57,301 nucleotides of DNA from an uncultured Clostridium sp. (GTDB taxonomy: Bacteria; Bacillota; Clostridia; TANB77; CAG-508). The position numbers and the translations under genes are program-made. The stretch lies in NCBI GenBank assembly GCA_947088765.1, contig CAMUHU010000001.1, positions 1 through 57,301 on the forward strand. Direction: 5' to 3'. Shown piece after piece: positions 74-57,028 of this stretch (the stretch's first letter is position 1; each line of letters starts with the position of its first letter). The notes under the pieces are model-generated. The model worked only from the letters and a program-made list of their open reading frames with translations, was not told the DNA's origin and did no database searches.

Positions 74-559
74 TTATATCATTGGAAAATTTGGTCCTCC
101 TGGGAAATTTGGTCCAGGTCTCATTGGTGGCCTTCCTGGTCTTCTCCTTAATAATTCTTTTATAATCAAAATTCTTATTAGATCCCTTAATAAGAAATTG
201 TTTTGTCTAGGTTCTTCTACTTTTCTTACATTTTGTGAATTATTTGTTCTAACTTCATTGCTACTTTTTTTAACGTCTTTTACTTCTCTTGTTTCTTCTG
301 TCATTGCATTATAAACTTCATCTGTCATACTTCTTACCATTTCTTCATTTATTACTCCAGTAGCTCTCATACACACTTTTTGTACCATTGGTTGTATCAT
401 TCTATATATGTCTGGATATAAATTTTCTAAATCCATGTTTTCATAACTACTGCCTCTTTGCATGTCATATATATTTTCTGGCATTTGATATGTATTCTGA
501 GGTCTTATATTATAACCTAATACATTTTGCATATATTCTTCATAATTTGAATTATACAT
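74..559 (-). CDS. hypothetical protein with Pro/Gly-rich C-terminus
   Basis: 161-aa ORF with RBS AGGGAGGATAATTT directly upstream of the ATG. No family recognised. Confidence 0.5.
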   Translation of the reverse strand: MYNSNYEEYMQNVLGYNIRPQNTYQMPENIYDMQRGSSYENMDLENLYPDIYRMIQPMVQKVCMRATGVINEEMVRSMTDEVYNAMTEETREVKDVKKSSNEVRTNNSQNVRKVEEPRQNNFLLRDLIRILIIKELLRRRPGRPPMRPGPNFPGGPNFPMI

Positions 560-685
560 AAAATTATCCTCCCTAATTTATTCTCGTATATTGTATTCTT
601 CATTTTTATATTTGGTGAATATTGATTTAATTTTATATATATTCTTTATATTGAAAATGTAATTTTTTTATATGTAATCGTTATA

Positions 686-1834
686 TTAGCCTATTTTTCT
701 TTTGTGTTTTGATACTATATTAGTCGCAATCATAAATATAATAGTAAATATTAAAATAATTCCCATGTTTATTAATATTGGTTTTATTGTTTCAAAGTTT
801 ACTATTTCTAATTGTTTTATCATATCATTACTGTTTATATAATAATATGATGGTAATATATGTGCAATTTTTATTACAGTGTCTGGTAACCATTCTAAAG
901 GTACAAATGCGCCACATAAGAAGCTTGAACCCAATGCTACGACATTTATAATTCCATTTATTGCATTTTTGTTTCTTACTAAGTTTCCTATTAAAAATGC
1001 GATTGTTACAGCACAAATTGTAAATATAAATGAGTTTAAAATATATATTAGCCCATGTGTAGTAAACATTATATCTCCAATTAGAATAAAACTTAACAGT
1101 ACATAGAATATCCATAACACTATTGCAAACAGACTATTTGATATAAGTAATTGTAAATTATACTTTCTATAATTCATACTACTTATAATTGTTCTTTTTG
1201 CTATTTTTTCTTCTTTAAAACTAGAAAGTATCAGACAAATTACATATACACAACCTGCTAATATACTATAGTTTGCAAAATTGAAGAAGAAGGAAGCTTT
1301 ATTTAGATTATCTGTATCTAATTTAGAGGTAATTTGTATTTCTGTTTGCTTTGATAATGCTTCATTTATGTTATTTATTAGTTCTTCTTCATTTTCTGTA
1401 TTACCCTCATATGTATTTGCTATTTTTATATATCTTTCTAACATCATTTCTGCAAGACTTGCTTGATAATCTCCTGTACTTTTTATTTCAATTTCAGGAT
1501 TTTCTCCTTTTAAAAATTCCTCTCTATAGTTTTCTGGTATGTATATAATATAATTTACATCTCTGTAGAATAAAGCATCATTAATAGCTTGTTCATTATT
1601 TTCTATCTCTTTTATATTACTATTCTCTTTTATATACTCTATTAGGTTTTTAGTTATCCCTTCTTCTTTATCTTTATTTATAATTAAAATGTCTGGTTTA
1701 CTTGCTACAAAGTTTGTACTATTTTCACTTGTTTGCATATTAAATGCACCAAAGAAAACTAAAATTACTGTATACAAAATAATAGGCATTTTACTTTTAT
1801 TTAATACTTTTAAAAATGTTTTAAATACTGTCAT
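686..1834 (-). CDS. ABC-2 type transporter permease
   Basis: 382 aa with an N-terminal TM, a large external loop and a C-terminal cluster of TM helices. Overlaps the upstream permease ORF by 14 nt (operon). Confidence 0.75.
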   Translation of the reverse strand: MTVFKTFLKVLNKSKMPIILYTVILVFFGAFNMQTSENSTNFVASKPDILIINKDKEEGITKNLIEYIKENSNIKEIENNEQAINDALFYRDVNYIIYIPENYREEFLKGENPEIEIKSTGDYQASLAEMMLERYIKIANTYEGNTENEEELINNINEALSKQTEIQITSKLDTDNLNKASFFFNFANYSILAGCVYVICLILSSFKEEKIAKRTIISSMNYRKYNLQLLISNSLFAIVLWIFYVLLSFILIGDIMFTTHGLIYILNSFIFTICAVTIAFLIGNLVRNKNAINGIINVVALGSSFLCGAFVPLEWLPDTVIKIAHILPSYYYINSNDMIKQLEIVNFETIKPILINMGIILIFTIIFMIATNIVSKHKRKIG

Positions 1835-9699: not shown

Positions 9700-9909
9700 T
9701 TGTTTACAGCATCACTTCATTCCGCTGCATAAGTTATCCGTAAAACTCCTCTGTCGTTAACGGCTTTTTTATTGTTTACAGCGTCACTTTGTTCCGCTGC
9801 ATAAGTTATCCGTAAAACTCCTCTGTCGTTAACGGCTTTTTTATTGTTTACAGCGTCACTTTGTTCCGCTGCATAAGTTATCCGTAAAACTCCTCTGTCG
9901 TTAACGGCT
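9700..9909 (-). repeat. three tandem 72-bp direct repeats in the leader of the BceAB-like ABC operon
   Basis: Units start at 9700, 9772 and 9844. Units 2 and 3 are identical and unit 1 differs at 3 positions. Each unit contains two short hairpins. Confidence 0.9.
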
Positions 9910-9996
9910 AACTTAACTATAACCTCTTTTTTTGATATTTGCCATCGATTTATATTACATTAACCTTACATTTTTGTAACATTTCTTTTTTACACC

Positions 9997-11414: not shown

Positions 11415-13560
11415 GCTTCATGCTTAATGATATTTTCTGTCTATCTTTGTCTATTTTTATGACTTTTACTTTTACTATGTCTCCTACTGATACTATGTCT
11501 GATGGATTTTTTATATAACTATTACTCATTTCTGATATGTGTACTAGTCCATCATGTTTTACTCCTATGTCTATAAATGCTCCAAAGTCTATTACGTTTC
11601 TTACTGTTCCTGTTAGTACCATTCCTTCTGTTAAGTCTTCTAGTTTTAATACATCACTTCTTAGTATTGGTTTTGGCATTTCTTCTCTTGGGTCTCTTCC
11701 TGGTTTTGTTAGTTCTTCTATTATGTCTTGTAGTGTCATTTCTCCTATTTCTAATTCTTTTGCTGTTTCTTTTATGTTTATGTATTTTAGTTTTTCTTTT
11801 AATTCTTTTAGTTTGTCTTTGTTTCTTAAGTCTTCTTTTTCAAATCCTGCTTTGTTTAATAGTTTTTCTGTTTGCTCATAGTTGTCTGGATGTACTGCTG
11901 TTATGTCTAGTGCATTGTCTCCGTCTGATATTCTTAAAAATCCTGAACATTGCTCATATGCTACATTTCCTAGTTTTGGTACTTTTAGTAATTGCTTTCT
12001 GTTTTTGAATTTTCCGTTTTCGTCTCTATATTTTACTATGTTTTTTGCAATTCCTGAGTTTACTCCTGATACATATGATAGTAGTGATGGTGTTGCTATA
12101 TTTACGTCTACTCCAACTTTATTTACTGCGTCTTCTACTACTCCTGTTAGACTTTCGTTTAATGTTTTTTGGTTTACATCGTGTTGATATTGCCCTACTC
12201 CAATGGCTTTTGGGTCTATTTTTACAAGTTCTGCTAATGGGTCTTGTAATCTTCTTGCAATTGATATTGCTCCTCTTATTGAAACATTTATGTCTGGATA
12301 TTCTTCTGTTGCTAGTTTTGATGCTGAATAAACTGATGCTCCTGCTTCACTAACTATTGCATAATGTACTTCTCTATCTACTTCTTTTATCATGTCTGCT
12401 ACAAACATTTCTGATTCTCGTGATGCTGTTCCATTTCCAATGGCTATCATATCTATTTCATCTTTTTTTATTAGTTTTATTAGTTTTTCTTTTGCCCCTT
12501 CTACATCATTTTGTGGTGCTGTTGGATATACTGTTTCTGTATCTAATACTTTTCCTGTTTCGTCTATTACTGCTATTTTACAACCTGTTCTATATGCTGG
12601 GTCAAATCCCATAACTGTTTTTCCTTTTATTGGTGCTCCTAATAATAGTTGTTTTGCATTTTTTCCAAATACTTTTATTGCTTTGTCATCTGCTTTTTCT
12701 GTTAAATCACTTCTTATTTCTCTTTCTATTGATGGTTCTATTAGTCTTTTAAATGCATCTAATATGGTTGCTTTTAACATTTCTTCAAATTGTGTTTTTC
12801 CTTTTATAATGTCTCTTTCTATATATGCTATTATTTTATCTTCTGGCTTTTCTATTTTTACTTTTATTGCTTCTTCTTTTTCTCCTCTATTTATTGCTAG
12901 TATTCTATGACTTGGTATTTGATTGATTTTTTCTTTATAGTCATAATACATCTCATAATTTGTTTGTTCATCTTCTTTTGATGCTTTTGTTACTATATAG
13001 CCTTCTCTATAACAATATCCTTTTATCTTTTTTCTATATCTTGCATCATCTGATATGTTTTCTGCTATTATGTCTAATGCTCCTGCTATTGCTTCTTCTA
13101 TTGAGTTTACTCCTTTTTCTTCGTCTATATATTGTTCTGCAATTTTATTTATGTCTTCTGTTTCTTCTTGTGTATAGATTATTATACTTAATGGTTCTAA
13201 TCCTTTTGCTTTTGCAACTGTTGCTCTTGTTTTTTTCTTTTGCTTATATGGTCTATAAATATCTTCTACCTCTGCTAATGTAATTGCATTTTCTATTGCT
13301 GTTTCTAGTTCCTCTGTCATTTTTCCTTGTTCTTCAATAGATTTTTTTACTTCTTCTTTTCTGGTTTCTAGGTTTCTTAAATATGTAAGTCTTTCATTTA
13401 AGTTTCTTAAAGTTTCATCACTTAAACCACCTGTGACCTCTTTTCTATATCTCGCTATAAATGGTATTGTGTTTCCTTCGTCTATTAATTTTATTGTATT
13501 TTCTACTTGTGTATTTTTAATTTGTAATTCGTTTGCTATTGTTTGTATTATTTTTTCCAT
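11410..13560 (-). CDS. tex: Tex-like transcription accessory protein with S1 RNA-binding domain
   Basis: 716 aa with a Tex N-terminal region, YqgF-like and HhH regions and a C-terminal S1 domain (GTVRNVIDFGAFIDIG). Confidence 0.9.
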   Translation of the reverse strand: MEKIIQTIANELQIKNTQVENTIKLIDEGNTIPFIARYRKEVTGGLSDETLRNLNERLTYLRNLETRKEEVKKSIEEQGKMTEELETAIENAITLAEVEDIYRPYKQKKKTRATVAKAKGLEPLSIIIYTQEETEDINKIAEQYIDEEKGVNSIEEAIAGALDIIAENISDDARYRKKIKGYCYREGYIVTKASKEDEQTNYEMYYDYKEKINQIPSHRILAINRGEKEEAIKVKIEKPEDKIIAYIERDIIKGKTQFEEMLKATILDAFKRLIEPSIEREIRSDLTEKADDKAIKVFGKNAKQLLLGAPIKGKTVMGFDPAYRTGCKIAVIDETGKVLDTETVYPTAPQNDVEGAKEKLIKLIKKDEIDMIAIGNGTASRESEMFVADMIKEVDREVHYAIVSEAGASVYSASKLATEEYPDINVSIRGAISIARRLQDPLAELVKIDPKAIGVGQYQHDVNQKTLNESLTGVVEDAVNKVGVDVNIATPSLLSYVSGVNSGIAKNIVKYRDENGKFKNRKQLLKVPKLGNVAYEQCSGFLRISDGDNALDITAVHPDNYEQTEKLLNKAGFEKEDLRNKDKLKELKEKLKYINIKETAKELEIGEMTLQDIIEELTKPGRDPREEMPKPILRSDVLKLEDLTEGMVLTGTVRNVIDFGAFIDIGVKHDGLVHISEMSNSYIKNPSDIVSVGDIVKVKVIKIDKDRQKISLSMKL

Positions 13561-18127: not shown

Positions 18128-18156
18128 TGTAGGGGCGATTAGCAATCGCCCGTTCT
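18128..18156 (+). repeat. REP-like hairpin (CGATTA subfamily)
   Basis: TGTAGGGGCGATTagcAATCGCCCGTTCT. Confidence 0.8.
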
Positions 18157-18193
18157 AACAAAGGCTTGCTAAAAAACTTATATTCTTAAGCAT

Positions 18194-18231
18194 GTTCTTC
18201 GAAGGGCGGGCGATTAATAATCGCCCCTACA
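18194..18231 (-). repeat. REP-like hairpin (CGATTA subfamily)
   Basis: Plus strand GTTCTTCGAAGGGCGGGCGATTAataATCGCCCCTACA, inverted relative to the copy at 18128. Confidence 0.8.
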
Positions 18232-32663: not shown

Positions 32664-32727
32664 GTTTGTTTCCTTTCATTATAGTTAAATTTTATTATAT
32701 TTTGTAAATATAGACGCATCTATACTA

Positions 32728-32900
32728 CATTCATAATTAATAAATTTGAGAAATTATTTGAGTGAAATTGAGGTTAGAAAATGTTATAATTTCAATTATA
32801 GGGAATCTCGAGCCTGTCGAGAGGGCGCTGTAATTGAAATTATTACATTCTCTCCGAAATTGAGAGGGATAGAATTTCGAGAATTTATTAATTATGAATG
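32728..32900. repeat. 173-bp compound palindrome in the infB-rbfA spacer
   Basis: Perfect 19-bp inverted ends CATTCATAATTAATAAATT / AATTTATTAATTATGAATG. The inner stem is ATAATTTCAATTA / TAATTGAAATTAT around CTCGAgcctgTCGAG. Direct GAAATTGAG(A)GG repeats occur on both arms. Confidence 0.8.
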
Positions 32901-32914
32901 TATTGACCTCTTGA

Positions 32915-42663: not shown

Positions 42664-42700
42664 TTAAATTCCCTCCTTTCCATAACAATTATTATTAATC

Positions 42701-42723
42701 GTAGGGGCACATTGCATGTGCCC
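42701..42723 (+). repeat. REP-like hairpin (CACATG subfamily), left half of inverted doublet
   Basis: GTAGGGGCACATTGCATGTGCCC. Confidence 0.85.
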
Positions 42724-42746
42724 TTTTGATTTGAATGATTTTCAAT

Positions 42747-42769
42747 GGGCACATGCAATGTGCCCCTAC
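42747..42769 (-). repeat. REP-like hairpin (CACATG subfamily), right half of inverted doublet
   Basis: Plus strand GGGCACATGCAATGTGCCCCTAC, the exact reverse complement of 42701-42723. It lies 12 nt after the trpS stop. Confidence 0.85.
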
Positions 42770-42781
42770 AATTTTATTTTT

Positions 42782-47918: not shown

Positions 47919-48044
47919 AAATTTCAAAAATAATCAGCATCTTGCGTCGTTAAACTACATTTGAAATCAAATCAACGTACAATAGTACGCCTCATTGATT
48001 TCAAATTTGTTTGCCTAGCAATATACTAATTATTTTTAAAATTT
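47919..48044 (-). repeat. long-hairpin element, copy B
   Basis: 27-bp closing stem whose 3 transition differences are G:U only on the minus strand. The core TGAGGCGTACTATTGTACGTTGA is near-identical to copy C. Confidence 0.8.
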
Positions 48045-48074: not shown

Positions 48075-49400
48075 ATGAAAAGAAAATTTTTATTTATTTT
48101 ATTGTTAGCTTTTGCTTTTTTCGCATTTTTTACTCTTACAGATAATGTAAAAGCGGCTCAACCATCTTATGGAGATGATGGTAATGGATATATTACTCTT
48201 GGTTCTCAAAAATGTTTTTTTGCAAATGGTACACATATTAGTATAGAAGAAAGAGATGATGGAGCTCAAGGAGCTAAAATCGTATGGCTTGATGGAACTG
48301 AAACTAAAACTGTAAATGTTCCTAGTGATATTAACGTATTTGGTGGAGCTCACCATGATGCTACTAATTATCCAAGTACCAAAATTACTATGAATGGCGG
48401 AACTGTTAAAAATATATTTGGTGGCGGTCTTCACCAAAGTTCTGTCACAAATGCAGAGGTTGTTATTAATGGAGGAAAAGTAACTGGTAGTGTAACTGGT
48501 GGTGGTGCAAACATATTTGCTAATAGTGATTCTGGTTCGCACACAGGTTCAAGCTTTGAAACAGTAGTTATTAATGCAACTACTACTATAAATAATGGTA
48601 GTGCATTTACTGTTTATGGCGGTGGTGAAGGATATTCTACTACGAATAATGCAACACTTAACATTAATGGTGGTACTCTTAGTTATGTTACTGCTGGTGG
48701 TTCTAATGGAACTACAGGTAATGCAAATGTTAAAATTACAAGTGGCCAAATTGCTTTATTGCAGAGTGTTAACCGTGGACAGGTTTCTTCAGCAGACATG
48801 CGTGTACTAGGTGGTACTATTGATAAACTTTATGTAGGTGGAGAAACAGAAGATTCAAATGTTACTGGTTCTATTGGTTCTGTAGGTCTAGATATCACTG
48901 GTGGTTCTGTTGTTAATAATTTATACATTGGTAAAAGTGGTGGACAATTAATTGGAACAAATGGAAATAATACTAAAGTAGATGTTGATCTTTACCTTGG
49001 TGCAACTGTAAATATACCAAACCCAAGCGAGTTTCAAAATATCCCAGTTACACATTATGTTTTTGTAACAATAGATGATAACAGATTTGAATTAGAAACT
49101 GGAAAAACTTTAGCTGATATTCCTGAGTTACCAGCTATAAAAAATGTAGCAGGTAAAGAGTTTGTTCATTTTGTTAAGGCTGATACAGGTGAGGTTTTTG
49201 ATGAAGCAACTCAAATTAATAGTAATACAGATTTAAAAACAGTTTATAAAACGGTAGAAAAACCAGCTCCTGAGGTTGTACCAGATAAAAAAGATGAGAC
49301 TCCAAAAACAGGTGAAAATAATATATTTAATATTATAGCTATAACTTCATTAATTTTCTCATTAGTAGGATTTGTTATTGCAAGTAAGATAAAAAGATAG
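48075..49400 (+). CDS. cell-wall anchored surface protein (beta-helix repeats, TPKTG sorting signal)
   Basis: Signal peptide, about 7 Gly-rich repeats (NGGTVKNIFGGG, NGGKVTGSVTGGG, ...), and a C-terminal TPKTG plus hydrophobic helix plus KIKR tail. Confidence 0.75.
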   Translation: MKRKFLFILLLAFAFFAFFTLTDNVKAAQPSYGDDGNGYITLGSQKCFFANGTHISIEERDDGAQGAKIVWLDGTETKTVNVPSDINVFGGAHHDATNYPSTKITMNGGTVKNIFGGGLHQSSVTNAEVVINGGKVTGSVTGGGANIFANSDSGSHTGSSFETVVINATTTINNGSAFTVYGGGEGYSTTNNATLNINGGTLSYVTAGGSNGTTGNANVKITSGQIALLQSVNRGQVSSADMRVLGGTIDKLYVGGETEDSNVTGSIGSVGLDITGGSVVNNLYIGKSGGQLIGTNGNNTKVDVDLYLGATVNIPNPSEFQNIPVTHYVFVTIDDNRFELETGKTLADIPELPAIKNVAGKEFVHFVKADTGEVFDEATQINSNTDLKTVYKTVEKPAPEVVPDKKDETPKTGENNIFNIIAITSLIFSLVGFVIASKIKR

Positions 49401-53128: not shown

Positions 53129-54781
53129 TTATTTTATTGCTTTTTCTAGCCTTCTTATTACACTGTCTTTTCCTAATACTTGCATTATTTCGTACATATC
53201 TGGCGTATTTGCTTTTCCTGTTAATGAAATTCTTATGACAGTTGATATATCTCCTACATGCCCTTTGTAGTTTTCTGGATTTGCTTTATATTCTTTTACT
53301 TCTCTTGCATATCCAGATTCTTCTGCTAAGTCTTTCATTTTATTGAACCATGTTTCTTTATCGTCTGATATATTAAAGTATTTTTCAATATATGTGTTTA
53401 CTATATTTTTTATTTCTTCTTTGTCATTTATTTTCTGATATTCATATTGAATTTCTTGGTTTAAATACCTTTCATCATACATATATTCTATGTTTTCTTT
53501 TATTGTAGACCATTTTGATATGTCTTTTCTTGGCTTTTCATTTCCACGTTCTATTCCTAATACTTTTAATGTGTATTCTGTATCTTTTTCTAATAATTCT
53601 TTTAAGTCATTATCATACATATTTGCCCATGATAATGCTTTTTCATATACTGTTTTTGCATCATATTTTGATATTACTGTTTTTGATATGTCTAGTAGTT
53701 TTACCATATCAAATAATGCTCCACTTACACTCATTTTGTTTAATAATAATTCAAATTCATCTATTGAAGCATTTTTGTTTTGCTTTCTCCATAATTCAAA
53801 ATTTGAATTTGCTATATTTAATAAATATTCTTTTACTGCTTCTGATGGAATTCCCTCTTTTGCATAATATTCAACTGCAGCTTCTGGATCTTTTCTTTTA
53901 CTTAGTTTTCTTTTTGCTCCATTTTCTTCTTTTAATATTGGTGCTATATGACAGTATTTTGGTGCTTTAAATCCTAAGACTTGAAATAATTGAACATGTA
54001 CTGGTAATGATGATAACCACTCATCTCCACGTATTACATGTGTTGTTCCCATAAGATGATCATCAACTGCATGTGCAAAGTGATATGTTGGTAGCCCATC
54101 TGATTTTATTATTACTATGTCTTGATTATTTTCAGGGAATGTCACATTTCCTTTTATAACATCTTTAAATTTTACTTTTCTTTCTGCATCTCCTGGTGAT
54201 TTTAGTCTTATTATATATTCTTCTCCATTTTTTATTTTTTCTGCTGCTTCTGTAATTGGAAGATTTCTATATTTAGCCCAAACTCCATAGTATCCCGGTA
54301 TTACTTTTGCTTCTTCTTGTTTTTTTCTCATTTCTTCTAGTTCTTCTGGTGTACAAAAACAAGGATATGCTAATCTATTTTCTATTAAATATTTTGCATA
54401 GGCTTGATATATTTCTTTTCTTTGACTTTGTTTATATGGACCATAGTTCCCAAAGGATTCTTCTTCATTTTTCATTCCTTCGTCTGGTGTTATATCAAAT
54501 TTTTCTAATGCTTCTATTATTCCTGTTACACCATTTTCTACTTCTCTTTTTTGGTCTGTATCTTCAACTCTTAAAAAGAATACTCCATTTGTTTGCGCTG
54601 TAACTTTTCTTGCTATTAATGCAGAATATAATCCTCCTATATGTACAAATCCTGTTGGACTAGGAGCAAATCTTGTTACTATTGCTCCTTCTGGTAATTC
54701 TCTTGTAGGATATTTTTCTTCATAATATGATATATCCTTTATTTCTGGAAATATTAAATTTGCTAAATCTTTATAATCCAT
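53129..54781 (-). CDS. gltX: glutamate--tRNA ligase
   Basis: HIGH-type motif (PTGFVHIGG) and KMSKS-type motif (KLSKRK). Start set at MDYKDLANL (ATG 54781, 9 nt after the GGAGAGGA RBS). Confidence 0.9.
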   Translation of the reverse strand: MDYKDLANLIFPEIKDISYYEEKYPTRELPEGAIVTRFAPSPTGFVHIGGLYSALIARKVTAQTNGVFFLRVEDTDQKREVENGVTGIIEALEKFDITPDEGMKNEEESFGNYGPYKQSQRKEIYQAYAKYLIENRLAYPCFCTPEELEEMRKKQEEAKVIPGYYGVWAKYRNLPITEAAEKIKNGEEYIIRLKSPGDAERKVKFKDVIKGNVTFPENNQDIVIIKSDGLPTYHFAHAVDDHLMGTTHVIRGDEWLSSLPVHVQLFQVLGFKAPKYCHIAPILKEENGAKRKLSKRKDPEAAVEYYAKEGIPSEAVKEYLLNIANSNFELWRKQNKNASIDEFELLLNKMSVSGALFDMVKLLDISKTVISKYDAKTVYEKALSWANMYDNDLKELLEKDTEYTLKVLGIERGNEKPRKDISKWSTIKENIEYMYDERYLNQEIQYEYQKINDKEEIKNIVNTYIEKYFNISDDKETWFNKMKDLAEESGYAREVKEYKANPENYKGHVGDISTVIRISLTGKANTPDMYEIMQVLGKDSVIRRLEKAIK

Positions 54782-54818
54782 ATTTTTCATTCCTCTCCTA
54801 ATTATTATCAATATGATA

Positions 54819-54941
54819 GGTTGGAAAAGAATTATTATTTGGCTAGGCACGCGATGGAGATATTCCATGAGGCGTACTAATGTACGTTGAATGGAAATCG
54901 ACTGAGCAGTAACAACGCCAAATGATGATTATCTTCCAACC
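54819..54941 (+). repeat. long-hairpin element, copy C
   Basis: 25-bp closing stem (54819-54843 / 54917-54941). Core blocks are TTGGCTAGGC...TTCCAT GAGGCGTACtaatGTACGTTGA ATGGAA...AACAACGCCA. Confidence 0.8.
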
Positions 54942-54946
54942 ATATA

Positions 54947-57028
54947 TTATGCGTCAATAATTATTGGCAACACCATCGGATTTCTCTTATTCTTTTGATA
55001 TAAATAATCTCTTATTTTATCTTTTACTGTAGATTTTATTGTTACCCATTCTTTTACATTATTATCTTCAAGATTTGCTAATGTATTTCTTACAATTCTT
55101 TTTATCTCTTCCATTAAGTTTTCTGATTCTCTTACATATACAAATCCTCTTGAGATGATGTCTGGTCCTGATACTACTTGCCCTTCACTATTCATAGATA
55201 TTACAACTACTATTAATCCATCTTGAGATAAATGTTGTCTGTCTTTTAAAACTATATTTCCAACATCACCTATGCCTAAACCATCTATTAATACTTTTCC
55301 ACTTTGAACACTACCTGTTATTTTTCCTTCATCTGGAGTTAGTTCTAGCACTTTTCCATTGCTTAAAATGAATATATTTTCATTTGGAATTCCCATTAAT
55401 TTTGCTGTATCACTATGTGCTACTAATTGTCTATATTCACCATGTACTGGTATAAAATATTTAGGTTTTGTAAGTGCTAATATTAGTTTTTGTTCTTCTT
55501 GTGCGGCATGTCCTGATACATGTATATTCTGTAATGAGCTGTATACAACTTCGGCACCTATTTTCATTAAGTCATCTATTACTTTTGATACAAATTTCTC
55601 GTTACCTGGTATCGGTGTTGCTGAAATAATAACTAAATCGTTTGGTGTAATTTGAACTTTTTTATGTTCTCCTGATGCCATTCTTGTTAATGCTGACATT
55701 GGCTCTCCCTGTGAACCTGTTGTTATTATTGTTAAGGCTTCTTCTGGATATTTATTTATTAATTCTATATCTACTATTGTATTTTCTGGTACATCCATAT
55801 AACCTAATTTAGAAGCAGTTTCTATTACTTTTACCATGCTTCTACCACATATAGCAACTTTTCTACCATATTTTACTGATGAGTTTATTATTTGTTGAAC
55901 TCTATGAACGTTTGATGAGAATGTAGCTATTACAATTCTCTTTTTACAGTTTACAAATAGATTATCAAATACTTCTCCTATTGTACTTTCTGAGTTTGTA
56001 AATCCTTTTTTCTCTGCATTTGTACTGTCTGACATTAGGGCTAATACCCCTTCATTTCCCAATTCAGCAAAACGTCCTAAATCTACTTTTTGTCCATCTA
56101 TTGGTGTATAATCTATTTTAAAATCTCCTGTATGGACTATTACTCCTGCTGGTGTGTGTAGTGCAAGTCCTACTGCATCTGGTATACTATGTGCTGTTCT
56201 TATAAATTCAATTTTCATTTTTCCTAAATTTATTATTTGTTTTTGGTCTACTATGTTTAATTTTGTTGACCTTAATAAATGGTGTTCTTCTAATTTATTT
56301 TCTATTAATGCTATTGTAAATCTAGTTGCATATATTGGTACATTAATTTGTTTTAACAAATATGGTATTCCTCCAATATGGTCTTCATGTCCATGTGTTA
56401 TTACTAGTCCTTTTATTTTGTCTTTGTTTTTTACAAGATAACTCATGTCTGCTATTACAAAGTCTACTCCTAACATATCTTCTGTTGGAAATGCTAGTCC
56501 ACAGTCTACTATGACAATTTCATCTTCATATTCAAACACAGTTATATTTTTTCCAATTTCTAGTAATCCACCTAATGGTATTATTTTAATTGCGCTTGCT
56601 TTAAATCTAAATTCTTCTTTTCTTCTAGTTCTTGGCTTTCTATTATTTTCTCTTCTTTTTGTAGCTACTTTTTTATATTCTATCTTTGAATCAATTTTTA
56701 TCTCTGCTTCGTTATTTTCTATTTTAGGTTCTATTTTTATTTCAGGTCTCTTGTTTTCTTTCTTAGGTTCTATTTTTATTTCAGGTATTTTATCTTCTGT
56801 TTTAAGTTTGTTTTTTACTTTTACTTTTTTATTTTCTGTCTTAAATTCCTTTTTTATTTCTGTTTTTTCTTCGTTTTTTACTCTTTTGTTATAATTATTA
56901 GTCCTTCTTCTCTTTTTTACTTCTTCTTTTTTCTCTGGTATAGAATCTACTGTTAGATTCTCTATTTTGTCTTCTCTCATTTTTTCTTTTTCAATCCTCT
57001 CTTCTCTTTTTTGTTTTTTAATATACAT
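54947..57028 (-). CDS. rnj: ribonuclease J with about 145-aa Lys/Glu-rich N-terminal extension
   Basis: Metallo-beta-lactamase core (IIPLGGLLEIGKN, HGHEDHIGG), beta-CASP and C-terminal domains. No SD before ATG 57028, so the start is uncertain. Confidence 0.85.
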   Translation of the reverse strand: MYIKKQKREERIEKEKMREDKIENLTVDSIPEKKEEVKKRRRTNNYNKRVKNEEKTEIKKEFKTENKKVKVKNKLKTEDKIPEIKIEPKKENKRPEIKIEPKIENNEAEIKIDSKIEYKKVATKRRENNRKPRTRRKEEFRFKASAIKIIPLGGLLEIGKNITVFEYEDEIVIVDCGLAFPTEDMLGVDFVIADMSYLVKNKDKIKGLVITHGHEDHIGGIPYLLKQINVPIYATRFTIALIENKLEEHHLLRSTKLNIVDQKQIINLGKMKIEFIRTAHSIPDAVGLALHTPAGVIVHTGDFKIDYTPIDGQKVDLGRFAELGNEGVLALMSDSTNAEKKGFTNSESTIGEVFDNLFVNCKKRIVIATFSSNVHRVQQIINSSVKYGRKVAICGRSMVKVIETASKLGYMDVPENTIVDIELINKYPEEALTIITTGSQGEPMSALTRMASGEHKKVQITPNDLVIISATPIPGNEKFVSKVIDDLMKIGAEVVYSSLQNIHVSGHAAQEEQKLILALTKPKYFIPVHGEYRQLVAHSDTAKLMGIPNENIFILSNGKVLELTPDEGKITGSVQSGKVLIDGLGIGDVGNIVLKDRQHLSQDGLIVVVISMNSEGQVVSGPDIISRGFVYVRESENLMEEIKRIVRNTLANLEDNNVKEWVTIKSTVKDKIRDYLYQKNKRNPMVLPIIIDA
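56687..56803 (-). repeat. three tandem 39-bp repeats encoding the 13-aa (P/A)EIKI(E/D)(P/S)K.. repeats of the RNase J extension
   Basis: Units start at 56687, 56726 and 56765. The first 22 nt (AGGTTCTATTTTTATTTCAGGT) are identical between units 2 and 3. Confidence 0.7.

Follow-up and report, generated by a model that had tools for sequence, protein, structure and literature searches.

Between the genes rnj and gltX of an uncultured Clostridium sp. lies a conserved hairpin element, and it is this element, together with the repeat family that it represents, that we describe here. The DNA that was analysed, called the window below, is a stretch of 57,301 nucleotides (GenBank assembly GCA_947088765.1, contig CAMUHU010000001.1, positions 1 to 57,301 of the forward strand). 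Both the RNase J gene rnj (open reading frame (ORF) 54947-57028; RNase J Pfam domains are present in homologues of the gene) and gltX (53129-54781) lie on the minus strand, and the spacer between them is filled by the element, named copy C. Its parts and the gene features that adjoin it are these:

54819-54941, plus strand: copy C, complete hairpin element of 123 bases, identified by sequence, RNA fold and the covariance model R1 (114.4 bits over 54814-54948)
54819-54843, plus strand: 5' arm of the outer stem P1, GGTTGGAAAAGAATTATTATTTGGC, which holds the conserved A-tract and the G of a conserved G·A mismatch
54844-54848, plus strand: 5' internal-loop block UAGGC, within GCTAGGC at 54842-54848
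54869-54890, plus strand: apical block, made up of GA, GGCGTAC, the loop TAAT, GTACGTT and GA
54911-54916, plus strand: 3' internal-loop block AACAAC (AACRAC in the family), opposite UAGGC, from alignment column counts
54917-54941, plus strand: 3' arm of P1, GCCAAATGATGATTATCTTCCAACC, which holds the T-tract and G residues that pair G:U with the 5' arm
54947-54949, minus strand: stop codon of rnj, convergent with copy C and 5 nt beyond its 3' end
54782-54818, minus strand: 37-nt spacer from copy C to the gltX ATG (54781), carrying the Shine-Dalgarno sequence AGGAGAGGAAUG

The inner helix of copy C is TTCCAT/ATGGAA; the apical block combines a Watson-Crick helix of 5 bp with two invariant G:U pairs and with tandem G·A pairs. 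Folded as RNA, the plus strand reaches -54.9 kcal/mol (z -8.25) as against -38.9 for the minus strand; with DNA parameters the corresponding values are -23.4 and -19.5, such that the gap between the strands is smaller than it is for RNA. The heptamer GCTAGGC occurs three times in the window (1.42 expected by chance), once in each of the copies that we call A, B and C. A preliminary description of this DNA had taken these three copies to be homologous members of one plan, and their sequences, their inverted repeats and R1 all support that view.

Homologues of copy C are numerous. A scan of one genome per species for the pattern GCTAGGC-N15-23-TGAGGC-N8-12-ACGTTGA returned at least 115 loci (numbered with an L where a locus must be named), and about 105 of those listed belong to metagenome-assembled genomes (MAGs) of uncultured gut Clostridia, from hosts that include mouse, rabbit and chicken, often with several copies per MAG. 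One of the loci, L007 (MGBC105370), comes from the same species as the window and carries an element that is 99% identical. Clear full-length homologues with GC-rich stems are found in Nitrospirae (L040, L043, L072 and L090) and at deltaproteobacterial loci (L008 and L106). The preliminary description had proposed a covariance model and a search for further copies; R1, trained on an alignment of 62 copies, nearly all of them AT-rich (A1), finds at least 112 distinct copies over the scanned loci, including additional ones inside the same 8-kb pieces, for example two more in the Nitrospirae locus L040. When metagenomes were scanned with a pattern that favours GC-rich variants, at least 120 contigs (L122-L241) of 51-71% GC from soil, rhizosphere, sediment and groundwater were added, and R1 matches these GC-rich contigs end to end, at 40-88 bits and with several copies per contig.

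The preliminary description could match the element to no RNA family, and comparison with Rfam 15 leads to the same answer for the window and for the GC-rich homologues. At the gathering threshold no family in the window matches the hairpin element, with E up to 10 only noise is found around copy C (54700-55050), and fourteen GC-rich loci give nothing but a tRNA. Querying the literature by sequence strings returned nothing relevant to the hairpin family. Ribozymes, group II domain 5, K-turn or C/D RNAs, 6S and Y RNA were each considered and set aside, as their consensus features do not fit and none of them gives an Rfam match.

One Nitrospirae MAG, L040, has a divergent copy (418-553, plus strand) just upstream of, and co-oriented with, a gene for a Csm6-like CARF/HEPN protein (565-1821, plus strand; Pfam Cas_Cas02710, 1e-20), and the opposite end of the locus carries two further copies arranged in tandem. 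That the divergent copy neighbours the Csm6-like gene is probably coincidental.

The structure derived from A1 is that of an element of 120-135 nt with four helices and internal loops between them. The outer stem P1, about 25 bp with one conserved G·A mismatch, is followed by the UAGGC/AACRAC internal loop; inward of this loop come P2 (4 bp), GA opposite GAA, P3 (about 12 bp), a U·U pair with tandem G·A pairs, and the innermost helix P4, GGCGUAC/GUACGUU, with two G:U pairs. The two arms of P1 (24-27 nt) form inverted repeats, and indels in the loops break the reading frames through the element. UAGGC is identical in 62 of 62 aligned copies, but this block was fixed by the scan pattern itself; the AACRAC block lies outside the pattern. 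In the GC-rich homologues the counterpart of GCTAGGC reads GC(A/G/T)AGGC, and the termini read YYYY-GCAGGATGCTCAAAAAG ... CTTTTTCAGCATCCTGC-TA. The A5 and T5 tracts, which flank the GC-richer inner stem, are invariant and show no covariation; the A-tract columns are nearly invariant in A1 and in two further alignments, A2 and A3.

Elsewhere in the structure covariation is extensive, and the inner helices in particular covary as had been claimed. RNAalifold independently reports compensatory changes in 21 of 29 predicted pairs of A1. In the GC-rich set, which is independent, 85% of cells are paired and 41 of 48 pairs have changed on both sides; none of 500 shuffles reaches the observed values, and slid controls pair at 32-41%. 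Helix 4 of this set is 99.7% paired, with G:U in 110 of 114 and in 114 of 114 sequences at its two G:U positions. Covariation of this kind is evidence for a conserved secondary structure, with the reservation that a palindrome in DNA yields it too. At three loci (L019 2865-2996, L069 4539-4670 and L109 3100-3231) the AACA of the 3' loop is replaced by a stem-loop of about 50 nt (GCGAGTAAAATTTAT...ATAAATTTTTCACGC).

The two strands of the element are not equivalent. One strand was expected from the window's copies to fold much better, and it does so throughout the family: the element strand outfolds its complement in 124 of 127 distinct copies, with a median gain of 12 kcal/mol (RNA). The preliminary description had further read an excess of G:U over A:C as a sign of selection for a fold on one strand. 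The excess is real in the family alignment, with 407 G:U cells against 81 A:C cells, but 190 of the G:U cells come from the two invariant apical pairs and 167 from five other columns, and outside these seven fixed columns it vanishes (50 against 51). The asymmetry is thus one of fixed features, i.e. the G:U pairs, the tandem G·A pairs and the purine-rich loops, and not of a general tolerance for wobble. In addition, when L047 and L076 are compared with the orthologous L015, L033 and L036, the 5' arm is changed at two positions (GAAAAAGAATT to GAAAGATAATT), which makes it perfectly complementary to the 3' arm and erases an A·C as well as the conserved G·A mismatch; judged from the sequences, this looks like quasipalindrome (arm-to-arm) correction at the DNA level. 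Because compensatory change can come from arm-to-arm correction, the data do not show an RNA gene, and a palindrome like the REPs (repetitive extragenic palindromic sequences) or the MITEs (miniature inverted-repeat transposable elements) fits them at least equally well.

Placement has one constant feature: on its 3' side the element ends flush with the stop codon of an opposite-strand gene. Among the Clostridial copies, whose neighbours were called with a simple ORF caller, 70 of the 89 with two neighbours are antisense to both and 11 share the direction of both. Measured from the 3' end, convergent stop codons cluster at -1 to +5; in a smaller class, at -13, a TAA inside P1 serves as the stop. 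The next start codon typically lies 22-45 nt from the 5' end; the stop-side and the start-side anchor each occur independently of the other. Read in gene sense, the stop codon comes first, and after it the hairpin, a purine-rich tail that is short ((T)AGAT, or AGATTTGTGCCTTGAG in a subfamily), the Shine-Dalgarno sequence and the ATG. The stereotyped spacing from start and stop codons that had been pointed out in the window is confirmed there (37 nt from the gltX ATG and 5 nt from the rnj stop for copy C, overlap with an ORF stop for copy A) and recurs across the family. A Shine-Dalgarno sequence borne by the element was considered and rejected, as the GAAAGGAAUG that follows many copies is also native at genes without copies; among the sequences after copies, only the AGATTTGTGCC tail is linked to the element.

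Placement in the GC-rich set conforms to this rule. Of 97 copies, 54 have a reverse-complement stop triplet exactly at the P1 end (the background is 2-4 per position), and in 61 the P1 end is also where an antisense ORF of 60 codons or more comes to its end. These flush stops are TAG in 37 cases, TAA in 14 and TGA in 10 even though the hosts have 51-71% GC, and such a preference for TAG and TAA over TGA is unexpected for GC-rich genomes. The 5' flank of GC-rich copies is a run of four pyrimidines. With respect to their neighbours these copies are tandem-antisense (35), convergent (28), tandem-sense (13) or divergent (10). The flanking genes are ordinary housekeeping genes in conserved synteny, for example nadA, ileS-lspA and uppP in L194.

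The window itself holds further members of the family, at a density of 4 to 5 copies per 57 kb:

26736-26949, plus strand: copy A, in which about 110 nt (two extra hairpins) replace the apical helix; its two halves are matched separately by R1
27212-27300, minus strand: copy D, truncated, with the apex deleted and P1, CTAGGC and P2 retained; R1 32.9 bits, E 2.3e-5, and also found as an inverted repeat
47919-48044, minus strand: copy B, antisense to the plus-strand surface-protein gene 48075-49400 and 32 nt upstream of it; R1 127.4 bits
19153-19234, plus strand: possible degenerate relative, whose arms are P1-like and whose short core is different, on weak evidence (R1 with filters off, 22.8 bits, E 0.009)

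The 3' end of copy A overlaps the stop of a 49-aa ORF (26949-27098), its 5' side lies 32 nt from the start of a 24-aa SpoVM-like ORF, and its RNA fold amounts to -73 on the element strand versus -44.8 on the complement; it scores merely 16 bits with R1 because of the approximately 110 nt inserted at its apex. Copy B folds with DNA parameters at -28.1 versus -22.3 on the complement, copy D is antisense to nth (27326-27964, plus strand) and 30 nt upstream of it, and the possible degenerate relative sits about 20 nt upstream of the start of a minus-strand gene. Copies B and D are opposite in direction to A and C, as are their neighbouring genes, in a window whose gene direction and skew are otherwise uniform. 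As B and D follow the local gene direction without a clear replication switch, orientation appears to track the gene, and it is unlikely to be set by replication. The 24-aa ORF beside copy A (MTIVVKKVPKFLRGFVKLIFGIKD, window 26630-26703, minus strand) is called SpoVM-like by reading of its sequence alone.

The element is not a fixed resident of its sites. Relatives were fetched through GltX homologues, and their rnj-gltX spacers contain the following (percentages refer to GltX):

L119 (91%): a different palindromic repeat, of the GTAGGGGC REP type
L120 (90%): empty, 27 nt
L116 (89%): a different palindromic repeat, of the GGGACG type
L121 (86%): a different palindromic repeat, of the GTAGGGGC REP type
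L117 (84%): empty, 27 nt
L118 (77%): a terminator and a promoter

The rnj-gltX spacer is a hotspot for several repeat families. The R1 search of L116-L120, about 95 kb in total, found no copy of the element. In L121 one R1 copy is present between the rpiB stop and trpS; the same site is empty in L116 and L117, and in L119 it carries a P1-only remnant. The search for empty sites in relatives that the preliminary description had suggested has thus succeeded at two places (L117 and L120 for rnj-gltX, L116 and L117 for rpiB-trpS), and sites that are empty or otherwise filled in close relatives indicate that the element is gained and lost. Where orthologous copies can be paired, conservation of the element exceeds that of 250 nt of flank, most of it coding, in seven of seven pairs (e.g. 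94% versus 73% and 86%). The L119 remnant at rpiB-trpS (12190-12245) consists of outer P1 arms only (GGTTGAAAAAATAATT-ATAA-TTAATTTTTTCCAACC) followed by the tail AGATTTGTGCCTTGAG; the tail is hence part of the element, and copies can lose their interior by deletion.

Repeats of other kinds were seen along the way. Two pairs of GTAG-tagged REP sequences in inverted orientation lie in the window at 18128-18231 and 42697-42773 (TGTAGGGGCGATTAGCAATCGCCC..., TTGTAGGGGCACATTGCATGTGCCC...); these doublets look like REPINs, constitute a second repeat family unrelated to the hairpin element, and are of the same REP type as the repeats in the rnj-gltX spacers of L119 and L121. In L116 a palindromic repeat of a third kind, in which AAACTTTTTGGGACG recurs both directly and in inverted orientation, comes straight after the rnj stop (9878-9990). 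Nested long inverted repeats at 32726-32902 of the window (30-nt arms 90% and 26-nt arms 88% complementary) are by covariance model not members of the hairpin family and give merely weak hairpin-like matches. The sole Rfam match in the window at the gathering threshold is a ZMP/ZTP (pfl) riboswitch at 21116-21196 on the minus strand (45.1 bits).

What kind of element, then, is copy C? The reading that we favour, and to which we give about an even chance, is that it belongs to a large interspersed family of imperfect palindromes of about 125 nt that are REP/REPIN/MITE-like nonautonomous DNA; the family is most likely an unusually long, complex and widespread variant of REP/MITE-type palindromes that has not been catalogued. 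Its members are multi-copy, extragenic, polymorphic, stop-supplying, G:T-paired and mismatch-bearing, and it is for these reasons that we file them with REP/MITE-type palindromes. REPs are found mainly between unidirectional and convergent ORFs, near the upstream 3' end, their termini often give a TAG stop to flanking ORFs, and G:T pairing is frequent in them (Di Nocera et al. 2013, PMC3733652). The hairpin family resembles REP, BIME and REPIN sequences in being made up of multi-copy extragenic imperfect palindromes whose presence varies among related genomes; its location relative to ORFs and the TAG stops supplied by its termini are also those of REPs, and both show G:T pairs that favour one strand and stems broken by conserved mismatches (PMC3733652). 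With MITEs, among them ERIC/IRU of 127 bp, Correia/NEMIS, RUP and bcr1, it shares a length of about 125 nt and long terminal inverted repeats that fold as a rod, and also its noncoding nature, intergenic position within transcription units, insertion polymorphism and orientation-dependent RNA structure (PMC3184786, PMC3733652); MITEs fold as long RNA stem-loops (Delihas 2011, PMC3184786).

We hypothesize, by analogy with the REP-associated tyrosine transposases (RAYTs) and their REPs, that the element spreads, or formerly spread, as a single-stranded hairpin. An enzyme encoded elsewhere would read its conserved asymmetric features (UAGGC/AACRAC, the tandem G·A and the fixed G:U pairs, the G·A mismatch, the A5/T5 tracts), much as HUH tyrosine transposases (RAYTs) act on REP hairpins. 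The copies that survive would be those just past a stop codon and ahead of the ribosome-binding site of the next gene, in an orientation that keeps the weaker hairpin in the mRNA and puts the stronger hairpin and its U-tract on the antisense strand, presumably through selection against having the strong hairpin with its U-tract in sense. Once co-transcribed, the element may act as an intercistronic or 3'-end stem-loop whose layout of A-tract, stem and U-tract is like that of a bidirectional terminator, and a terminator-like or 3'-end-stabilising role of this sort would explain both the invariant A5/T5 tracts and the conservation of copies in place.

A number of observations weigh against a REP/MITE-like identity. 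That orthologous copies are better conserved than the coding DNA beside them speaks against copies that are purely selfish and in decay. REPs are GC-rich stem-loops of 20-40 nt, whereas members of the hairpin family, at 120-135 nt, are three to four times longer; the family also lacks the unpaired GTAG or CGTC that tags one end of a REP palindrome (the gene-sense tetranucleotide at the P1 end, over 93 copies, is GTAG in 6, TTAG in 12, CTAG in 12, CTAA in 8 and none in 28; tails in TAG or TAA are frequent, but not in the form GTAG), its most conserved part is the interior core and not the stem ends, and, unlike in REPs, the same core is common to several phyla. With the tag absent and the size excessive, it falls outside the defined REP superfamilies. 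The near-identical core from gut Clostridia to soil Nitrospirae is unusual for MITEs as well, and stop-flush placement and antisense bias are much stricter here than in MITEs. A target-site duplication could not be demonstrated: of 101 maximal palindromes, 18 have TA on either side, but this dinucleotide is self-complementary and the DNA AT-rich, the outermost P1 bases vary in Clostridial copies, and GC-rich copies have YYYY on the 5' side and TA on the 3' side with no direct repeat. A blastn search of 72,556 plasmids and 50,697 phages, with whole genomes outside the search, gave no copies and no matching insertion-sequence ends, and viral contigs too yielded no copy that might act as a vector. 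Without a demonstrable target-site duplication or a parent insertion sequence, membership among classical MITEs falls short. Clustering of about 2,500 ORFs from some 1.6 Mb of flanking DNA (8-kb pieces around copies) uncovered no enriched transposase or gene family; the ORFs that do cluster encode ABC ATPases or, in a few cases, large serine recombinases, or are artefactual frames that run across the element. No RAYT (IS200/IS605-type Y1) gene or REPtron was seen near copies in these same 8-kb pieces, which do not amount to whole genomes. Finally, a terminator scan called none at copy C and the apical hairpin alone at copy B.

Other candidates for a carrier or a function were considered. Serine recombinase genes (Resolvase, Recombinase, Zn_ribbon_recom and DUF4368 domains) abut or adjoin copies in L010, L052, L084, L086, L093 and L094; an enrichment based on six loci and about four independent sites was judged insufficient. 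Split copies that flank an ORF or carry cargo were looked for and none was found, merely small insertions (the loop of L019, L069 and L109, and the apex of copy A). Coding potential on the gene-sense strand was also entertained, as open frames of GC-rich copies cluster by similarity, and was rejected, since the loops differ in length by numbers of nucleotides not divisible by three and stops abound in the AT-rich copies.

One alternative to a REP/MITE-like repeat, in our judgement rather unlikely, is a new class of single-strand hairpin element, extending from gut Clostridia to soil Nitrospirae and Deltaproteobacteria and distinct from REP/RAYT, from DDE-type MITEs and from attC: either a self-propagating DNA or RNA that has machinery of its own and targets the position after a stop, or a host RNA module with a conserved protein. 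Unlikely too is a cis-acting RNA module maintained by the host and selected at each locus, be it a polar or bidirectional terminator, an insulator or an mRNA 3'-end hairpin, in which the strong strand would halt antisense or convergent transcription at the gene end and the weak strand would let operon transcription through. The element does have the arrangement of a bidirectional intrinsic terminator, its stem-loop standing between an A-tract and a U-tract, and it is located at the ends of genes and also between convergent ones (28 such copies in the GC-rich set), the invariant A5/T5 tracts stand beside the GC-richer inner stem on both strands, all seven orthologous pairs exceed their coding flanks in conservation, and the orientation bias follows local gene direction, as seen in B and D versus A and C. 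A terminator, however, needs neither conserved internal loops nor an outer stem that runs past the U-tract, and here the hairpin is about 100 nt long with conserved internal loops, the A- and U-tracts, which flank the inner stem in all copies, are paired with each other inside a longer stem, and that stem continues for 6-10 bp further. Moreover, many copies are in tight operons; in Clostridia only 25-40 nt and no promoter remain before the next essential gene, which makes efficient sense termination unlikely, and the terminator scan was negative at copy C. Such a module also leaves unexplained the near-identical cores across phyla, the empty sites and the replacement by other repeats.

An independently transcribed family of structured noncoding RNAs, made from the element strand antisense to its neighbours and bound by a conserved protein at the purine-rich loops, seems to us improbable. 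It would account well for the strong helix covariation, for tandem G·A and fixed G:U pairs, typical RNA motifs, on one strand only, for a strand preference (median 12 kcal/mol) that is larger than with DNA parameters, and for the additional stem-loops inserted in some variants at the apex or 3' loop, a frequent trait of structured RNAs. Such an RNA would nevertheless have to start within the ribosome-binding site of a neighbour at more than 100 loci and to end, without a free terminator, against a coding region. No conserved promoter lies upstream of the 5' arm; indeed, no conserved -35/-10 pair was found on either strand inside or beside the element, where scan matches are at background level. 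The equality of G:U and A:C beyond the seven columns, the invariant and non-covarying A5:U5 pairs, the presence or absence of copies among close relatives and the lack of an Rfam match likewise count against an RNA family. A single-stranded DNA recombination site of the integron attC type, folded on the bottom strand after an ORF stop and used by a tyrosine recombinase, is very improbable indeed. Integron attC sites follow an ORF stop with the folding strand antisense. As hairpins of 57-141 nt with strand-specific folding, a variable apex, extrahelical bases and an invariant AAC they call the element to mind, and GCTAGGC resembles the GTTRRRY core. In attC, RYYYAAC of the R boxes pairs with GTTRRRY at the base of the folded bottom strand, and L boxes with extrahelical bases are present as well. 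In the hairpin family, though, R-box/L-box pairing is absent; AAC is not paired with GTT in an R box but lies in the internal loop opposite UAGGC, with the order of motifs reversed, and the neighbours are housekeeping genes in conserved synteny and not cassettes, with no integrase in any locus. No integrons are known from Firmicutes.

If confirmed, the hairpin family would be among the most widely distributed of bacterial interspersed repeats, and one that is absent from Rfam: a single conserved architecture of 125 nt is found both in Clostridia of animal guts, whose genomes measure about 1.5 Mb, and in GC-rich bacteria of soil, sediment and groundwater. Its interest rests mainly on this breadth and on its strict placement. 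Being set so strictly against stop codons, it offers a clean system for asking how palindromic repeats choose and keep their sites, and such stop-flush repeats could reveal effects on termination, on the polarity of operons and on transcription in antisense. The asymmetry conserved in the loops predicts a protein that binds or cleaves them specifically and that could be tracked down, and a model of the family would improve the intergenic annotation of MAGs and avert spurious calls of small ORFs and small RNAs.

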